Assembly (NCBI GenBank): GCA_964373695.1
Contig: CAYJVT010000027.1
Span: forward strand, 1 to 10,316
DNA length: 10,316 nt
Direction: 5' to 3'
DNA from: an uncultured archaeon
Lineage (GTDB): Archaea; Aenigmatarchaeota; Aenigmatarchaeia; GW2011-AR5
Shown: piece by piece, positions 3,019-9,066 of the stretch
Position numbering within the stretch: position 1 is the first letter of the stretch
How the letters are laid out: every line of letters starts with the position of its first letter
Made by a program: the position numbers and the translations under genes
The notes under the pieces: model-generated
The model's input: only the letters and a program-made list of their open reading frames with translations
Told to the model about the DNA's origin: nothing
Databases searched by the model: none

Positions 3019-3089
3019 TTACAGGTCCGGAACAAAGATAGTTAGCTCCCATGCTATCTGGCGGATGGCTTGGCTCGATTGGCGACGAA

Positions 3090-3152
3090 AAAGAATTAAC
3101 CCAAGACTGAAATTGTTGAATTTCTGAGGAATATGGGCTAATTCTTCGTCAT
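3090..3152 (+). other. 63-nt BHB intron in 23S (after ~A53)
   Basis: Central helix GACG 3084-3087/CGTC 3147-3150; bulges AAA and ATG; inner stem AAGAATTA/TAATTCTT. Splicing restores GGCGACGAA|GGTCGTGG. Confidence 0.94.
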
Positions 3153-3830
3153 GGTCGTGGCAAGCTGCGAAAAGCCCCGGGAAGACGCATGCAGTCTTCG
3201 AACCGGGGATTGCCGAATGGGACATCCCATTAATTCGCGACGCAAGTTGCGAAGGCGAACGCCCAGAATCAAAGCATTCTAGTAAGGGCAGGAAAAGAAA
3301 GCAAAAGCGATTCCCTTAGTAACGGCGAGTAAAAAGGGAACAGAACAAACCGAAGCTCCGCAGAAATGCGGCAGCAATGTGGTGTTTGGACCCGGGCTTG
3401 GCTTAACCCGCGCATCCGAAGTCTTCTGGAAAGAAGCGCATTACAGAGTGACAGCCTCGTAGGAGAAGGCGGGAAAGTTGATACCGGGTATCCAGAGTAT
3501 GGTTCCTTGGATTTGGAGCCAGAATACGGGTCGCATCTAGACCTAATTCTAAATACTGAATCGAGTCCGATAGCGTATTAGTAAGGCGACTGAACGTTGA
3601 AAAGTAGCCGTAAAAGGCGTTGAAAAGAGTCTGAACCCAGGTAGCTATAGTTAGTCGGGTAAGGCCGCCGCAAGGCGGAAGAATCCGACGTACGTTTTGA
3701 AAAACGTGGCAGGGAGTTTTTTCTCGTGGCAAGGCTAACCCTTCTGGGGGCAGCCGTAGCGAAAGCGATTGCGCGCAGGCAACAAGGCGCACCGTGCGAA
3801 AACGCGGAAGTCACGGGATAAAGACCCGAA

Positions 3831-4655
3831 AACTTGGGAGTGAGTAGAGGTTTGTTGAAAATAACCACTTTTCACGCGCTCTTGGCAAAGAGGTATTAAA
3901 GTGAAAAGCAAATGTTCCTATGCAAAACAGAGAAATTCTTTTGTCAAGATTGATAGGATTGCTCCTAACAGATGGCAGCCTGTATCAGAATAAAAAAATA
4001 AAAGGCTGGAGAATTTCCTTTATTTCCAGTTCAGAAGAACTTGTTTTCGAATTTGAAAGATTGGCTTTTGATTTGTTCAACATCAAATTCAAGAAAAGTT
4101 TTTATAAAGGTGCATTTGAAGTAAAGCATTCTATAAAAAAAGAATTTGTAGAAGAACTGGTAAGATATTCTCCAACATACAGAACACTTTCCAAAGAAGG
4201 CAAGGAAACAGAAGCACGAATACCAGAATTTATATGGCATCAACCGGTTCTTTCAAGAGAATTTCTCAAATATGCATTCACAGGAGATGGAACAATAATC
4301 CTCAATATAGGAAAAGCAAAATACGGCTTTAGGTTTGACAGGTGTGTAAAATTATATTGCAAACATACAAGTCTTCGAAAGCAATATTTTGAGCTTCTGA
4401 AAAAACTGAATTTTGAGCCTGTTATGCTAAAAGATTCAGTCTTATTGAGAAAACAAGAAAATATGACAAAATTTTCACAAGAAATAGGTTTTGTAGAAGG
4501 CGTTGAGATTTCAGGAAATGGCTTATGGAAAGGAATAATGAAATCAAATCTCCTGAAATTCACATCAAACTCGTATAGTCTGAAGCCTAAAATGCTAGGA
4601 AAAACAAAAGATGATATTCATACAAACCTTGTAAACCTCATTCCCAAGTCGGGCG
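3831..4655 (+). mobile_element. 825-nt BHB intron in 23S (after ~A676) encoding a homing endonuclease
   Basis: Central helix CCCG 3825-3828/CGGG 4650-4653; bulges AAA and CGA; 13-bp inner stem 3832-3844/4637-4649. Splicing restores GACCCGAA|ACCAGATGATCTAG. Confidence 0.95.
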
Positions 4656-4669
4656 ACCAGATGATCTAG
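3920..4669 (+). CDS. Double-motif LAGLIDADG homing endonuclease (intron-encoded)
   Basis: Motif 1 LIGLLLTDGSL; motif 2 FLKYAFTGDGTI, preceded by the typical IPEFI linker; AT-rich and Lys-rich. The ORF runs past the 3' splice site. Confidence 0.92.
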   Translation: MQNREILLSRLIGLLLTDGSLYQNKKIKGWRISFISSSEELVFEFERLAFDLFNIKFKKSFYKGAFEVKHSIKKEFVEELVRYSPTYRTLSKEGKETEARIPEFIWHQPVLSREFLKYAFTGDGTIILNIGKAKYGFRFDRCVKLYCKHTSLRKQYFELLKKLNFEPVMLKDSVLLRKQENMTKFSQEIGFVEGVEISGNGLWKGIMKSNLLKFTSNSYSLKPKMLGKTKDDIHTNLVNLIPKSGDQMI

Positions 4670-4730
4670 TCCTTGGCAGAGTGAAGCTTTGCGAAAGCAG
4701 AGTGGAGGCTCGATACCGGTTATGGTACAA

Positions 4731-4825
4731 TTTTAGTAAGAGCCATATTAGCGTCAACTAGTGAATCTCAAATAGCAATCTACATTTACTGGACGAGGTC
4801 ACAGATGTTTTTACTAGAAGTACAA
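4731..4825 (+). other. 95-nt BHB-type intron in the 23S H35 loop (~752-754)
   Basis: Central helix GTAC 4725-4728/GTAC 4820-4823; inner stem TTTTAGTAA/TTACTAGAA; 3' bulge AAA; the 5' bulge is relaxed. Removal restores GGTT-ATGGTACA-AACC. GTACAA flanks both ends, so the junction is sequence-ambiguous. Confidence 0.85.
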
Positions 4826-5687
4826 ACCTTTCGGGTGACCTAGGACTAGGGGTGAAAAGCCAATCGAATCTGGTAATAGCTGGTTCCTCTCGAGATGCAT
4901 CTAAGTGCAGCCTCGGCGAGTTCGGCTGGTGGGGTAGAGCACTGATTAAACAGCCAAGGGGAGAGATCCCCAACTGTTTTGTCAAACTCCGAATCCATTA
5001 GCATAATCGCCGGGAGTGAGGGTATCTGGAGTAATTTTGATATCCGAAAGGGAAAGAACCCAGACTGCAGTTAAGGTCCCTTAGTGCTGATTAAGTGTAT
5101 CGAAAGCGGTCTAAAACTTTAGACAGTGGGAAGGTTGGCTTAGAAGCAGCCATCCTTTAAACAACGCGTAATAGCGGACCCACCGAAGTTTTGGGCGCTA
5201 AAAATGGACGGGGCTAAATCAGCCACCGATACTGCGGACGTACTGCTTGCAGTGCGTGATAGAGAGGCGTCCTGCGTGGGCAGAAGCGTCCCCGTAAGGG
5301 GGCGTGGACCGCGCAGAAATGAAGATCCTGCCGGGAGTAGCATACGAGTCAGGCGAAAATCCTGACCGCCTGAGGGGCAAGGGTTCCCCAGTAAAGCTTA
5401 TCTGCTGGGGGTAAGTCGATCCTAACCGATGTCTTAGGAAGAGCATCGGGAATCAGGGAATGGAGTTAATATTCTCCAACCTGACAATGCGTTCTGTATC
5501 TTGGACGCTTCGGGATAACTCAAGCACGATTGTCTTCGTGTCTAAGTACTTAATCCGAGGGAGTGCTGTAATGGCGAGAACTTGGAGAATGTACGAATGG
5601 CCTGGTGTATGCCGGGTTTGGGCGATTCCTGGAGCCCGTGAAAACTTAATGCAGGCATAGCATTGTCTGATCGTACTCAGAACCGAC

Positions 5688-6095
5688 AAAGGCGAGGCTT
5701 CAACACAGAAATCTATGAATATCGAGGCGTACCTAGAGTCGACTACGAAACTGTCGATTTTTGAATATGCTGATGAGATAGACAAGGATTTTAGAGAACA
5801 AACAAGAGCAACAGGAATTTTGTTACCACAAAAATTCAATGAGAATTTGTTGAAAATAATAAAGATGAATGAGACAAATTTTCAAGAATTCTCGAAATCT
5901 TTTGGGTATACAGACAAACAATTTAGAATATGGAGAGAAGGCAAAGCTGCAATACCGCTTAAAGTATTGACAGAAATTTGGAAGAAAGCTGAAATAAATA
6001 TAGAAGACTTAGAAAAATATATTGAAAATTATTTTAGAGTTTTTGGCGTGGTCATTGACATAAAAAATATAGTTTGAAGTTCTCGTCTTCGGGAA
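5688..6095 (+). mobile_element. 408-nt BHB intron in 23S (after ~C1615) with an HTH-protein ORF
   Basis: Inner stem 5689-5703/6074-6089; central helix ACCG/CGGG (one A.G mismatch); bulges ACA and AAA. Splicing restores AACCGAC|ACAGGTGCCCC. Confidence 0.92.
5715..6077 (+). CDS. Intron-encoded 120-aa protein with an XRE/Cro-like helix-turn-helix; no LAGLIDADG motif
   Basis: NFQEFSKSFGYTDKQFRIWREGKAAIPLKVLTEIWKKAEINIEDL fits the HTH_XRE pattern. The uninterrupted ORF fills 363 of the 408 intron nt, with composition like the other intron ORFs. Confidence 0.75.
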   Translation: MNIEAYLESTTKLSIFEYADEIDKDFREQTRATGILLPQKFNENLLKIIKMNETNFQEFSKSFGYTDKQFRIWREGKAAIPLKVLTEIWKKAEINIEDLEKYIENYFRVFGVVIDIKNIV

Positions 6096-6114
6096 ACAGG
6101 TGCCCCTCGCTGAG

Positions 6115-6159
6115 ATTCGAAGAGCGGATGCTCTTGATTTTCCGTTCTTCGAACAGAAA
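6115..6159 (+). other. 45-nt BHB intron in 23S (after ~G1633)
   Basis: 13-bp inner stem 6116-6128/6141-6153; central helix GCTG/CAGA (one G.A mismatch); bulges AGA and AAA. Splicing restores CGCTGAG|AAGGCG. Confidence 0.92.
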
Positions 6160-6287
6160 AAGGCGAAGGTGTTCTGGAGAATCCACTTTAGGGAACTCGG
6201 CAAAATAGCCCGGTATCTTCGGTAGAACGGGTGCCTGCTTAGTGATAAGCAGGTCGCAGTGACAAGTTCCATCGGACTGTTTAACAA

Positions 6288-6375
6288 ACAGGAAGAGGTG
6301 TTGAAGAAAAACTGCTATAGCTACCGCTCGAAAGAGCCAGTCCGTAGCAGCATGTATCATCTCTCTCTGGTTGAT
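6288..6375 (+). other. 88-nt BHB intron in 23S (after ~A1784)
   Basis: Central helix TAAC 6282-6285/GTTG 6370-6373; bulges AAA and ATA; inner stem 6289-6300/6358-6369. Splicing restores CTGTTTAACAA|AAACGTAG. Confidence 0.93.
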
Positions 6376-6629
6376 AAACGTAGCCGGCTGCTAAATCGAA
6401 AGGTCTTGTATAGCCGGTGAGTCGTGGCCACTAGCGGTGTGTTAAAACTGGTTTCAACCGGTCTAAGCCCCGCTGTAGGCCGGCCCTAACTCTGAGGGTC
6501 TTAAGGTGAAATTTGTTGCCTTAGTAAAATTTGGCTGTATGCTGGAACGTCCAAAATTTTCAGGTCCTGAGAAAGGAACAACCCTGAAAGGATGTGGACA
6601 ATCAGCAGGAAACCGTGAGGTGAGAAACC

Positions 6630-7124
6630 ATGAAAATGCCGAAAATAAAATATAGAAATTATTACCTTCTTGGATTCACAGATGCAGAAGGCTGTTTCAG
6701 TATTTCTCTGAAAAGGGAAGATACAGCAAGATTTGGATGGGCTTTGGATCCCCTATTTCAAATAACACAGCATAAAACAAATAGAGAAATTCTAGAGATC
6801 TTTCAAAACGAACTAAATTGCGGCAGAATAATAGAAAAATCTGGACAACCAGATTTGTTATTATATCTTGTCGACAATCGAAGACAACTTGTTGAAAAAA
6901 TAATACCTTTTTTTGAGAGGAACAGACTGATGGCAAAATATAACGACTTTGATAAATTCAAGGGAGTTGTAGAAGGCCTTGAAAACAAACTGCATCACAA
7001 AAAAGACACTTTTATCAACTTAATCAGAAAGTGTTATGAAATGAATCTTGAAGGCAAACAAAGAAGATACAAGCTAGAAGAAGTCATTGAGGATATCAAA
7101 AAACGGAATCCCCAGAGACTATAA
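6630..7124 (+). CDS. Single-motif LAGLIDADG homing endonuclease (I-CreI/I-CpaI-like), 164 aa
   Basis: YLLGFTDAEGCFSISL, F.ITQH...EIL..F...LNCGRI, IIPFF; SD GAGGTGA at 6617-6623. The C-terminus overlaps the ribozyme R element. Confidence 0.96.
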   Translation: MKMPKIKYRNYYLLGFTDAEGCFSISLKREDTARFGWALDPLFQITQHKTNREILEIFQNELNCGRIIEKSGQPDLLLYLVDNRRQLVEKIIPFFERNRLMAKYNDFDKFKGVVEGLENKLHHKKDTFINLIRKCYEMNLEGKQRRYKLEEVIEDIKKRNPQRL

Positions 7125-7234
7125 GCCAAACACGAAGCAGAGCGATAGCATCACTGCTTTTGTGAAGATATAGTCCGAACCTTGCAGTAATGCAAGGAGA
7201 TTTACAGAAATGTAAATCCGCTTCAAAATAGTTC

Positions 7235-7258
7235 AACGCACTTATGTGCGTTGGTCTG
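7235..7258 (+). repeat. Hairpin family B copy in the P9 extension of the group I intron
   Basis: AACGCAC-TTAT-GTGCGTT-GGTCTG. Confidence 0.8.
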
Positions 7259-7792
7259 TTAAGGAGTCCTAAAGTAACAGCTTGAGCGTAATCCCTTGCC
7301 ATTTAAATGATGGCCTGCATGATGGATTAACCAGATGGAAACTGTCCCGAAGTGGACCCAGGCGAAACCATTGTTCTGGTGATTAGGCCAGAGACCTCCA
7401 GTGGGAAGAGTAGACCCCGTGGAGCTTTACTGCAGTTTGTTGTTGTAGTATGGAAGGGACTGTAGAGCGTAGGTAGGAGGTGTCGAAGCTTTCTCGCAAG
7501 AGAGAGTGGAGCCAACAATGTAACACTACCCTTTTTCATCTATACTGCTTATACCGAAAGGTAGACATCAACAGATAGGCAGTTTGACTGGGGCGGTACG
7601 CCTTTGAAAAGATATCAAAGGCCCTCTAAGCTCGACTCATTCCGGTCAGAAATCGGAAGGAAGAGTGCAAACGCAAAAGTCGGGTTGATTGGACTCTTAA
7701 CATAATAGTGTCCAACCGCGAAAGCGTGAGTTAGCGAGACGCAGTTCGGCCTAGATGGCTGTCTGTGGTATGAGAAAAGCTACCCCGGGGAT

Positions 7793-8390
7793 AGATCTAT
7801 AAGCGTCTGTTAATAAATCAAGTTGATGCTGGAGAAAGGATTTGTCTTTGGAGCAAGCTATGACGGAATTGTCTATCACCGTGAAGAGAAAAATGAATAT
7901 GGCTTAGAAATAGACCAGAAATCTCTTTTATGGTTGAAGATAGTTCAAAAATACTTGCAGAAAGCTTATCGTAAAAACTCTAAGATTAGAAAAACAAAAA
8001 GAGGTTACTTTAGATTGAATGTATATTCTAAAGATCTTTATAACGAACTAAAAAAACTTCACGAAAATCCGCATTTAATCTTAGAGCAAAACGAAAAATT
8101 TCAGATAGGTTTTCTTCAAGGGATCTTTGATGCTCAAGGTAGTATTCGTTTCGAAAGAAGGCATATTACCGTGAGTTCAAATGAACCGAAAACAGCAGAG
8201 ATTGTCATTAGATTGCTTGAAAAGAATTGTATAAAAACTGGAAAACCATTCAAAGACAAAAATAACGTTATAAGTATCCCTTTCTACGGAAAAAACAATA
8301 TGTTAAAATTTAGTCGAATTATAAATTTTCGTCATCCAGAAAAGAAAGAGAGACTTGATTTGTTATTAAAATCGCTTGTAAATCCCCTAT
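7793..8390 (+). mobile_element. 598-nt BHB intron in 23S (after ~U2449) encoding a homing endonuclease
   Basis: Central helix GGGG 7787-7790/CCCT 8385-8388; bulges ATA and ATA; inner stem 7794-7805/8373-8384. Splicing gives CCGGGGAT|AATGGTGTCGT. No group I core elements are present. Confidence 0.94.
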
Positions 8391-8392
8391 AA
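7826..8392 (+). CDS. Double-motif LAGLIDADG homing endonuclease; second motif has Q in place of the acidic residue
   Basis: Motif 1 FVFGASYDGIV; motif 2 FLQGIFDAQGSI; C-terminal I.FRHPEK..RL typical of the family. Start is ATG 7826 or TTG 7823. Confidence 0.9.
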   Translation: MLEKGFVFGASYDGIVYHREEKNEYGLEIDQKSLLWLKIVQKYLQKAYRKNSKIRKTKRGYFRLNVYSKDLYNELKKLHENPHLILEQNEKFQIGFLQGIFDAQGSIRFERRHITVSSNEPKTAEIVIRLLEKNCIKTGKPFKDKNNVISIPFYGKNNMLKFSRIINFRHPEKKERLDLLLKSLVNPL

Positions 8393-8418
8393 TGGTGTCG
8401 TAGCGGGCGAGAGTTCTT

Positions 8419-8626
8419 GTCCGTATTCTTCGACATTACGGGGTTTGTAAAATATTAACCTCGGTGTCTACAAAGTACCACCAACATCGTATTACCCTCA
8501 ACTGTTAGAGTGAGCAACGAATGATTAACGCACTTCGTGCGTTGGTCTGCTTTTCCGTGAAAAACAGCGTTAGTAATACGATAAAGGTCTTTGCAGACAT
8601 AGACAAACGAAGAATCCGGAGGACAA
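8419..8626 (+). other. 208-nt ORF-less BHB intron in 23S H89 (after ~U2477)
   Basis: Central helix GTTC 8413-8416/GGAC 8621-8624; bulges TTG and AAA; inner stem 8420-8432/8608-8620; outer GA/TC. Splicing restores GAGAGTTCTT|ATCGACCCC. Confidence 0.93.
8523..8550 (+). repeat. Hairpin family B copy inside a BHB intron
   Basis: GATT-AACGCAC-TTC-GTGCGTT-GGTCTGC. Confidence 0.8.
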
Positions 8627-9066
8627 ATCGACCCCGCGTGTTGCGGCGTCGCTGTCGGCTGGCCCTCTCCTGGCTGTGCAGCAGCAGCCAAGGGTGCTGG
8701 AGTTCACAGATTAAAAGGGCACCTTAGCTGGGTTCAGAACGGTGTGAGCCAGTTTGGTCTATATCTGCTGGAGGTGTCATTGCCTGAGGGAAAAGAAGGA
8801 TAAGTACGAAAGGAACATCCTTCTGCGGCCTCTTGTGTACCAGTTGTCCGACAGGGCAGCGCTGGGTAGCTACGCCGTACGCCGATTAGAGCTGAAGGCA
8901 TCTAAGCTCGAAGCGGCTCTCGAAAATAGGCAATCGGTGCTGGCAAGACGACCAGTCATGGAACAGGGGTGTAATTACCAAGCTTCGGCGAGGTATTCAG
9001 CCCATTGTCTCCTAAACCAATGCTAACCTTTAACGTTGGGAAGCAAAGAGGATTGATGCAAAAGCT

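Follow-up and report, generated by a model that had tools for sequence, protein, structure and literature searches.

A helix-turn-helix ORF in an archaeal 23S rRNA intron, probably the relic of an HTH-LAGLIDADG homing endonuclease gene

The 23S rRNA locus and its 408-nt intron

The window, that is, the whole stretch of 10,316 nt that was analysed, is contig C27 of an archaeal genome of 1.02 Mb that was 91% complete; a genome this small suggests an organism of the DPANN type. Its 23S rRNA gene, located at 3037-9031 with the Rfam archaeal LSU model, was about twice the normal length and contained four large A+T-rich inserts with a G+C content of 30-33%, compared with about 50% in the exons. Each of these inserts held one ORF, of 249, 120, 164 and 189 aa, respectively. 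Pfam analysis of the three ORFs other than the 120-aa one assigned the 249-aa and 189-aa proteins to LAGLIDADG_3 and the 164-aa protein to LAGLIDADG_1. Elsewhere in the same genome (G000), a free-standing gene for a 239-aa double-motif LAGLIDADG_3 protein was found between unrelated genes on contig C12 (about 12125-12844; L023 1480-2199), and LAGLIDADG-like segments at C2 40659-41150 and C4 32780-33232, which lay inside open frames of 1054 and 965 aa, were probably inteins. A malic enzyme gene (Pfam malic and Malic_M; 739-1980) and an AHSA1-like gene (2013-2438) were located between the 3' end of the 16S rRNA (about 634) and the intron-bearing tRNA at 2484-2651 that precedes the 23S gene, so the rRNA genes are separated by protein-coding genes.

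The second insert appeared in the Rfam local alignment as 410 nt, with CCGACA up to 5688 on one side and GGUGCC from 6099 on the other. In the Rfam archaeal LSU model, the insertion point was at about position 1756, within a small hairpin loop; this model numbering is used because a blastn comparison of an intron-less archaeal 23S segment with E. coli genomes returned no match. Both genomes of the same genus, G001 and G002, were devoid of the insert, their junction reading AACCGACACAGGTGCCCC without interruption, and CCGACACAGGTGCC was uninterrupted in G001, G002 and L016. The intron-less site has the sequence CGTACCNAGAACCGACACAGGTGCC. The junctions in G001 and G002 fixed the insert at 408 nt with an ambiguity of one A. 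The initial annotation had recognized an intron at 5688-6095, which these junctions bore out, 5689-6096 being equally possible. The features of this intron and its flank are as follows.

5672-5687, plus strand: 5' exon flank CGTACTCAGAACCGAC, presumed left half of the ancestral homing site (Rfam alignment; intron-less alleles in G001 and G002)
5682-5703, plus strand: 5' half of the predicted splice motif, with the central strand (A)CCG(A), a 3-nt bulge (ACA/CAA) and, as its 5' strand, 14 nt of the long terminal stem (same folding in five family members)
5688-6095 or equally 5689-6096, plus strand: intron of 408 nt, probably of the splicing-endonuclease (bulge-helix-bulge-like) type (Rfam alignment, intron-less alleles, no group I match)
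5715-6077, plus strand: 120-aa ORF, P0001, the HTH domain of an ancestral HTH-LAGLIDADG endonuclease with a short out-of-frame tail (ORF translation, homology search, alignment)
5728-5743, plus strand: degraded internal copy of the 5' exon flank, 12/16 identical to 5672-5687 and 56 nt downstream of it (counted by eye)
5737-5759, plus strand: predicted hairpin with the former start codon (now ACG, 5745-5747) in its loop (folds, alignment)
5823-6014, plus strand: predicted XRE/Cro-type HTH domain, residues ~37-100, with the family motif DKQxRxWRxGxxxIPL (AlphaFold2, Foldseek, invariant residues)
6045-6053, plus strand: approximate junction of the internal deletion of ~560 nt (ends of the N-domain homology and of the 3' homology)
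6053-6096, plus strand: what is left of the 3' end of the ancestral intron and its ORF (~44 nt), in a shifted frame (82% identity to L020 1052-1094)
6074-6096, plus strand: 3' half of the predicted splice motif, with the 3' strand of the terminal stem, (U)CGG and GAAA, which is single-stranded and contains the 3' splice site (folds of five family members)

The folds of five family members shared a common architecture with unrelated stem sequences. In the window, 6074-6088 paired with 5690-5703 as the terminal stem, leaving U6080 bulged, and the inner stem measured 10-14 bp across the five members. The last bases of the 5' exon flank formed the central helix of the motif, in which the exon CCG(A) paired with (U)CGG near the 3' end of the intron; the end of the window intron, UCUUCGGGAAACAGGUG, was identical in L014 and L020. 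Cleavage 3' of the second base in ACA and in AAA would regenerate the intron-less sequence, and the 3' bulge had no closing outer helix. These predicted structures fit a relaxed bulge-helix-bulge substrate. The non-coding part of the window intron comprised only 27 + 18 nt, i.e. 45 nt, and that of the L014 intron 67 nt. A group I intron, a type that occurs in archaeal 23S genes at other sites (PMC6125680), was considered and rejected, there being no Intron_gpI match at the gathering threshold and the 45 non-coding nt being too few for a ribozyme.

Two small inserts were observed near the same site. In G001 (L003 1783-1813) and at the equivalent place in G002 (L004), 31 nt of sequence TGTTTTAGAGTTACGGCTCTAAACAGAGTAT were inserted between CTCAGA and AACCGACA; this position is 8 nt upstream of the intron site and within the presumed left half of the homing site, and the window lacked the insert. 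This insert may represent a mini-intron, which would disrupt the endonuclease target. The 47-nt insert at 6117-6163 of the window, described in the initial annotation as a 45-nt intron after a 19-nt micro-exon, was also present in G001 and G002 with a changed sequence; this insert predates the 408-nt intron and is common to the genus.

The HTH domain of P0001 and its full-length relatives

The ORF of P0001 was intact and filled nearly the whole intron, and its TGA stop codon at 6075-6077 was located in the 3' strand of the terminal stem. No match to LAGLIDADG, HNH or GIY-YIG was obtained for P0001 in Pfam. Its sole Pfam match was a sub-threshold one to HTH_26 over residues 44-103 (E = 0.054; score 14.2 bits, cut-off 22), and for the XRE/Cro-C1 HTH families PF01381, PF13443 and PF12844 both P0001 and its relatives scored below the Pfam gathering score. 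Sequence searches of PHROGs, NCBIfam and the PDB gave weak matches, mainly to XRE-type regulators and to a homeodomain. The AlphaFold2 model, built from a 10-sequence alignment, reached a pLDDT above 90 at residues ~30-100, which formed a five-helix bundle (37-52, 56-62, 67-74, 82-91 and 96-100) as in XRE/Cro-C1 domains, with helices 2 and 3 making up the HTH; the tail was modelled at low confidence. All top matches of the model in the Foldseek PDB search were XRE/Cro/C1 HTH proteins (DdrO, ClgR, C.BclI, HipB and the 434 repressor), with probabilities of 0.9-0.98, TM scores by target of about 0.6 and E values that were weak (0.07-0.3) for so short a domain. Residues ~37-100 of P0001 were thus confidently predicted to be an XRE/Cro-type HTH domain. 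The initial annotation, which had described an intact 120-aa ORF filling the intron, free of LAGLIDADG, HNH and GIY-YIG motifs, carrying an XRE/Cro-like HTH and stopping within the terminal stem, was confirmed in the sequence features and agreed with the predicted fold.

An exhaustive phmmer search of 1.84 billion protein representatives returned eight matches, including the query itself. The strongest homologues were at E = 5e-25 and 5e-24, the latter being P0003 with 52% identity to P0001 over residues 12-110; with homologues at E = 5e-25, the ORF is not a chance frame. Four of the matches were proteins with both HTH and LAGLIDADG regions, namely P0003 (299 aa), P0008 (315 aa), P0007 (282 aa) and P0005 (460 aa), and all four ran on past the HTH into the two LAGLIDADG motifs GRxCGDGS and GLIDTEGS, as shown by Pfam and the alignment. 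The other three were P0002, a short form of 118 aa, P0004 and P0006. P0004 was rejected as a low-complexity repeat protein. P0006 (127 aa) was rejected as a third short form because its contig, L017, was 100% identical to L021 over the first 568 nt and then continued into unrelated, G+C-richer sequence; L017 is probably a chimeric metagenome assembly and the source of the misleading P0006. A metagenome scan added two further full-length members, L020 (299 aa, 54% identity) and L021 (301 aa, 53%). In sequence, the closest relatives of P0001 are therefore the N-terminal domains of HTH plus double-LAGLIDADG proteins of 299-315 aa, with 52-54% identity over residues 12-110, and every genuine homologue except the 118-aa P0002 was the N-terminus of a longer LAGLIDADG protein. 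The long forms are unlikely to be assembly fusions because several independent contigs agree. The family alignment retrieved no relative from 185,579 scanned species genomes, the 70 genomes searched in the same order contained only two weak matches, both to longer proteins, and a word-index search for near neighbours returned nothing besides the query.

In L014, L020, L021 and L015, the gene was carried by an intron at exactly the 23S site of the window, with CCGA(C/T)A before the 5' junction, GGGAAA at the 3' end of the intron and CAGGT after it; this held for 4/4 intron-borne relatives with readable DNA. L015 also had both downstream introns of the window, those with LAGLIDADG_1 and LAGLIDADG_3. 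P0003 and P0008 represent a small and apparently undescribed group of archaeal endonucleases encoded in introns at a single 23S site (CCGACA joined to CAGGUG), in which an XRE-type HTH is joined to a double-LAGLIDADG core. P0001 shares with this group the HTH including its motif KQxRxWRxGxxxIPL, the rRNA position and the terminal structure, and is without the nuclease domain. It stops before GRxCGDGS and lacks GLIDTEGS in the alignment, so that the LAGLIDADG helices (PF14528, PF00961, PF03161) are absent, and the alpha-beta-beta-alpha-beta-beta-alpha core fold was found only in the model of P0003, not in that of P0001. P0001 is a derivative of the group and not a functional member.

The model of P0003 (pLDDT 91, pTM 0.88) placed its C-terminal 190 residues with I-DmoI, I-Tsp061I and intein endonucleases in Foldseek. 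The similarity of the P0003-type core to I-DmoI and I-Tsp061I (E = 2e-8 to 6e-8, TM by target 0.67-0.70) indicates a single-chain double-LAGLIDADG fold, and like these enzymes of 23S/16S rRNA introns, the P0003-type genes reside in rRNA introns with a bulge-helix-bulge-like excision motif. I-DmoI and I-Tsp061I are not known to have an N-terminal HTH domain. The window ORF differs from both in having lost the core, and is therefore not a LAGLIDADG protein. The top Foldseek matches of P0003 were 7qsu and 2cw7, the intein endonucleases TliVMA and PI-TkoII, which likewise combine a LAGLIDADG nuclease with an extra HTH-type DNA-contacting domain (PMC8966425). In these inteins the domains lie inside a protein-splicing scaffold, whereas in the P0003 type an intron ORF encodes the HTH as an XRE-type domain at its N-terminus.

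Relatives of the HTH were also observed outside such introns. The 460-aa HTH-LAGLIDADG protein P0005, with a long N-terminal extension, was encoded by a free-standing gene (L016 6001-7383) about 600 nt downstream of an intron-less 23S rRNA gene (L016 2210-5393) in which the target site CCGACACAGGTGCCCC was intact. Another free-standing gene (L018 682-1785, minus strand; G006) encoded a 367-aa protein with the HTH, LAGLIDADG_3 and a weak, sub-threshold HTH_20-like C-terminus. In L019 1375-2361 (G060), the HTH motif, there SxxxLRxWRxxxxxIPL, was fused to a non-LAGLIDADG C-terminal domain with no match in Pfam or the PDB, and the ORF abutted or overlapped the 5' end of the 23S rRNA. Since it occurs in free-standing and non-LAGLIDADG-fused contexts as well, the HTH behaves as a modular nuclease-associated DNA-binding domain.

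Internal deletion, exon-like copy and start-codon hairpin

The window intron was 408 nt long, compared with 955-1016 nt in the relatives. DNA alignment matched its nt 1-268 to the first 268 nt of the L020 intron with 70% identity and its nt 365-408 to the last 43 nt of the L020 intron with 82% identity. At the protein level, the homology to the N-domain ran to about 6044, and the homology to the 3' end of the long ORFs began at about 6053. The missing part of ~560 nt corresponded to about residues 100-288 of the 299-aa relatives, that is, the whole LAGLIDADG core. Retained from the ancestral intron were ~330 nt at the 5' end and ~44 nt at the 3' end. Of the two readings that the initial annotation had offered for the ORF, a cleanly truncated HTH-LAGLIDADG gene or a new class of cargo, the former was upheld by homologues that were N-termini of long proteins at the same site and by the retention of both intron ends. 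Behind the junction, the last eight codons of P0001 were read in a shifted frame up to a new TGA stop; the position of the ancestral TAG was now TCG, and the pairing of the stem was preserved. At the other end, the ATG of L014, L020 and L021 aligned to ACG at 5745-5747 of the window. The frame now opened at an ATG located 30 nt upstream of this ACG, inside an A/T-rich box conserved in the relatives, and the leader across the lost start codon was free of stops over 10 codons. There was no Shine-Dalgarno sequence for P0001 at working distance, whereas the ORF of the group I intron in the window had one.

In each of the three P0003-type introns with an intact gene, the 5' exon flank (CGTACCAAGAACCGA) recurred as a copy of 15-16 nt, located 55-56 nt downstream of the genuine flank. 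The direct repeats were L014 39-53/94-108 (15/15 identical), L020 113-131/169-187 (16/19) and L021 364-379/420-435 (14/16). The exon-like copy was located between the conserved A/T-rich box and the start codon of the endonuclease, and its 3' half was part of a predicted hairpin of 9-10 bp, in which it supplied the 5' arm and the start codon occupied the loop. The hairpin was 86% paired across the members and included one compensatory pair; with n = 4 sequences, the covariation was not significant, as shuffles reached the observed score in 189/500 trials. By analogy, the exon-like copy may act like an operator that mimics the homing site. In I-TevI of the phage T4 td intron, a GIY-YIG nuclease whose HTH DNA-binding domain doubles as an autorepressor, the operator mimics the homing site and a hairpin covers the translation start (PMC2988022). 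The P0003-type introns resemble it in the modular combination of nuclease and HTH and in having an exon-like copy and a start-codon hairpin, but the nuclease family, the intron type and the domain of life are different, and the likeness is one of layout alone.

Origin and significance of the HTH-only ORF

The most probable explanation is that P0001 is a neutral relic of a homing endonuclease gene from which the nuclease core was deleted. The element would be an intron of the bulge-helix-bulge type, dependent on the splicing endonuclease and inserted in a hairpin loop of the 23S rRNA, with an ancestral cargo of a ~300-aa homing endonuclease that joined an N-terminal XRE-type HTH to a single-chain double-LAGLIDADG nuclease. 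In the lineage of the window, an internal deletion of ~560 nt took out the entire nuclease core; the HTH domain remained, together with the final ~44 nt of the gene and the RNA structure needed for excision by the host. Such an intron could presumably no longer home alone and would persist because its excision costs the host little, which would correspond to the degeneration stage of the homing cycle. Should P0001 be translated at all, it would bind DNA at the flank of the former homing site, with no nuclease attached and without a function under selection. The intact appearance of its sequence would be explained by the deletion being recent, given that the sister species are without the intron altogether.

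The cycle of gain, degeneration and loss and the large-deletion derivatives of endonuclease genes in rRNA insertions have been documented (PMC11270868; PMC8966425). In CPR bacteria, a single rRNA insertion site was found with full ORFs, with ORFs carrying large deletions and with no ORF, as the gain-degeneration-loss cycle predicts (PMC11270868), and the intron of the window similarly represents an rRNA insertion with a deleted endonuclease ORF. The CPR cases differ in their bacterial hosts and, in PMC11270868, in being without a clean deletion that leaves a complete accessory DNA-binding domain. The homing cycle and the loss of the nuclease domain have also been described for inteins (PMC8966425); unlike inteins, the nuclease-less remnant in the window retained the accessory domain and not a splicing element.

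Several observations counted against a neutral relic and could instead point to an exapted stand-alone DNA-binding protein with an HTH maintained by selection; it might repress the promoter-like region of the intron, for example, or bind the rDNA site. P0001 kept 11/11 of the HTH residues invariant in six full-length members, for which the leave-one-out values were 11/11 to 11/12. Its nonsynonymous distance to outgroups (0.70-0.76) was not raised in comparison with that of the full-length relatives (0.70-0.89). The frame was kept open past the lost start codon by the upstream ATG, the parent family has the exon-like copy between the A/T-rich box and the start codon in a layout like that of the I-TevI operator, and the second short form, P0002, stopped at almost the same domain boundary, so that HTH-only forms could recur. 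On the other side, a clade of stand-alone HTH proteins was absent: a profile search for proteins of 60-210 aa among 5.8 billion clusters returned only P0001 and P0002, both of them singletons, the protein cluster of P0001 having one member. The exon-like copy of the window was degraded to 12/16, the ancestral start codon was gone and a Shine-Dalgarno sequence at working distance was missing, and because the intron is missing from the sister species, a young deletion explains the intact HTH equally well. We therefore consider the exapted protein unlikely. The idea of a regulator expressed at rRNA-level abundance, raised in the initial annotation, found no support, given the lost ancestral start and the missing Shine-Dalgarno sequence. 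The same annotation had named homologues that are N-termini of longer LAGLIDADG proteins, together with a dN/dS near 1, as the mark of a decaying remnant; the homologues were as foreseen, but the HTH was without decay, and in the Nei-Gojobori comparison of the window ORF with L014, L020, L021, L015 and L016, pS was 0.56-0.86 and dS was saturated or undefined. A more elaborate proposal takes WhiA, which was among the Foldseek matches of P0003 (8dy7) and whose Pfam family LAGLIDADG_WhiA weakly matched the relatives, as its precedent. WhiA shares the pairing of LAGLIDADG and HTH and illustrates a turn into a pure DNA-binding regulator; it is an inactivated LAGLIDADG scaffold with a C-terminal HTH found throughout a phylum, whereas P0001 is an N-terminal HTH only and a singleton. 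That the family HTH binds the left homing-site flank and autorepresses via the exon-like copy in the manner of I-TevI, and that P0001 is a selected binder of rDNA or intron DNA at an early step towards a WhiA-like host regulator, would be conceivable, and we regard it as distinctly unlikely.

Two further explanations were less compatible with the data. P0001 could be a targeting subunit acting in trans that provides DNA recognition to a separate LAGLIDADG nuclease, encoded by any of the other three intron ORFs of the window or by the 239-aa gene on C12, amounting to a split endonuclease, and the presence of several HTH-less LAGLIDADG genes in the genome and the varied partners of the HTH module in relatives would agree with this. 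However, the neighbouring ORFs of the window showed no specific similarity to P0001, and resemblance to the deleted core was low both for the free-standing C12 protein (32% identity) and for the 189-aa ORF next to P0001 (weak similarity). These proteins are therefore different endonucleases with separate sites. Moreover, the HTH of the full-length proteins was covalently linked, with no sign of an interface. A split endonuclease is thus very improbable, and the suggestion in the initial annotation of a partner for the neighbouring endonucleases failed, P0001 being unrelated to the neighbouring LAGLIDADG ORFs. A new class of intron cargo, that is, an HTH regulator that was never part of a nuclease gene, had only the absence of nuclease motifs in P0001 in its favour. 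It was contradicted by the 52-54% identity to the N-domains of HTH-LAGLIDADG genes at the same site and by the retention of both ends of the long intron, and we give it almost no credence; the corresponding reading of the initial annotation was left without a conserved stand-alone lineage to back it.

Read as a neutral relic of a homing endonuclease gene, the rRNA intron that seems to carry a regulator would represent a known stage in the life cycle of homing endonucleases, caught just after the deletion of the core. For annotation, this means that such ORFs should be labelled endonuclease remnants and not transcription factors. P0001 would also be a natural experiment on modularity, in which an accessory DNA-binding domain survives alone. 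The parent family, with its exon-like copy and start-codon hairpin, is a more interesting by-product than P0001 itself: if these two elements work as they do in I-TevI, autoregulation through mimicry of the homing site would have arisen independently in archaea.
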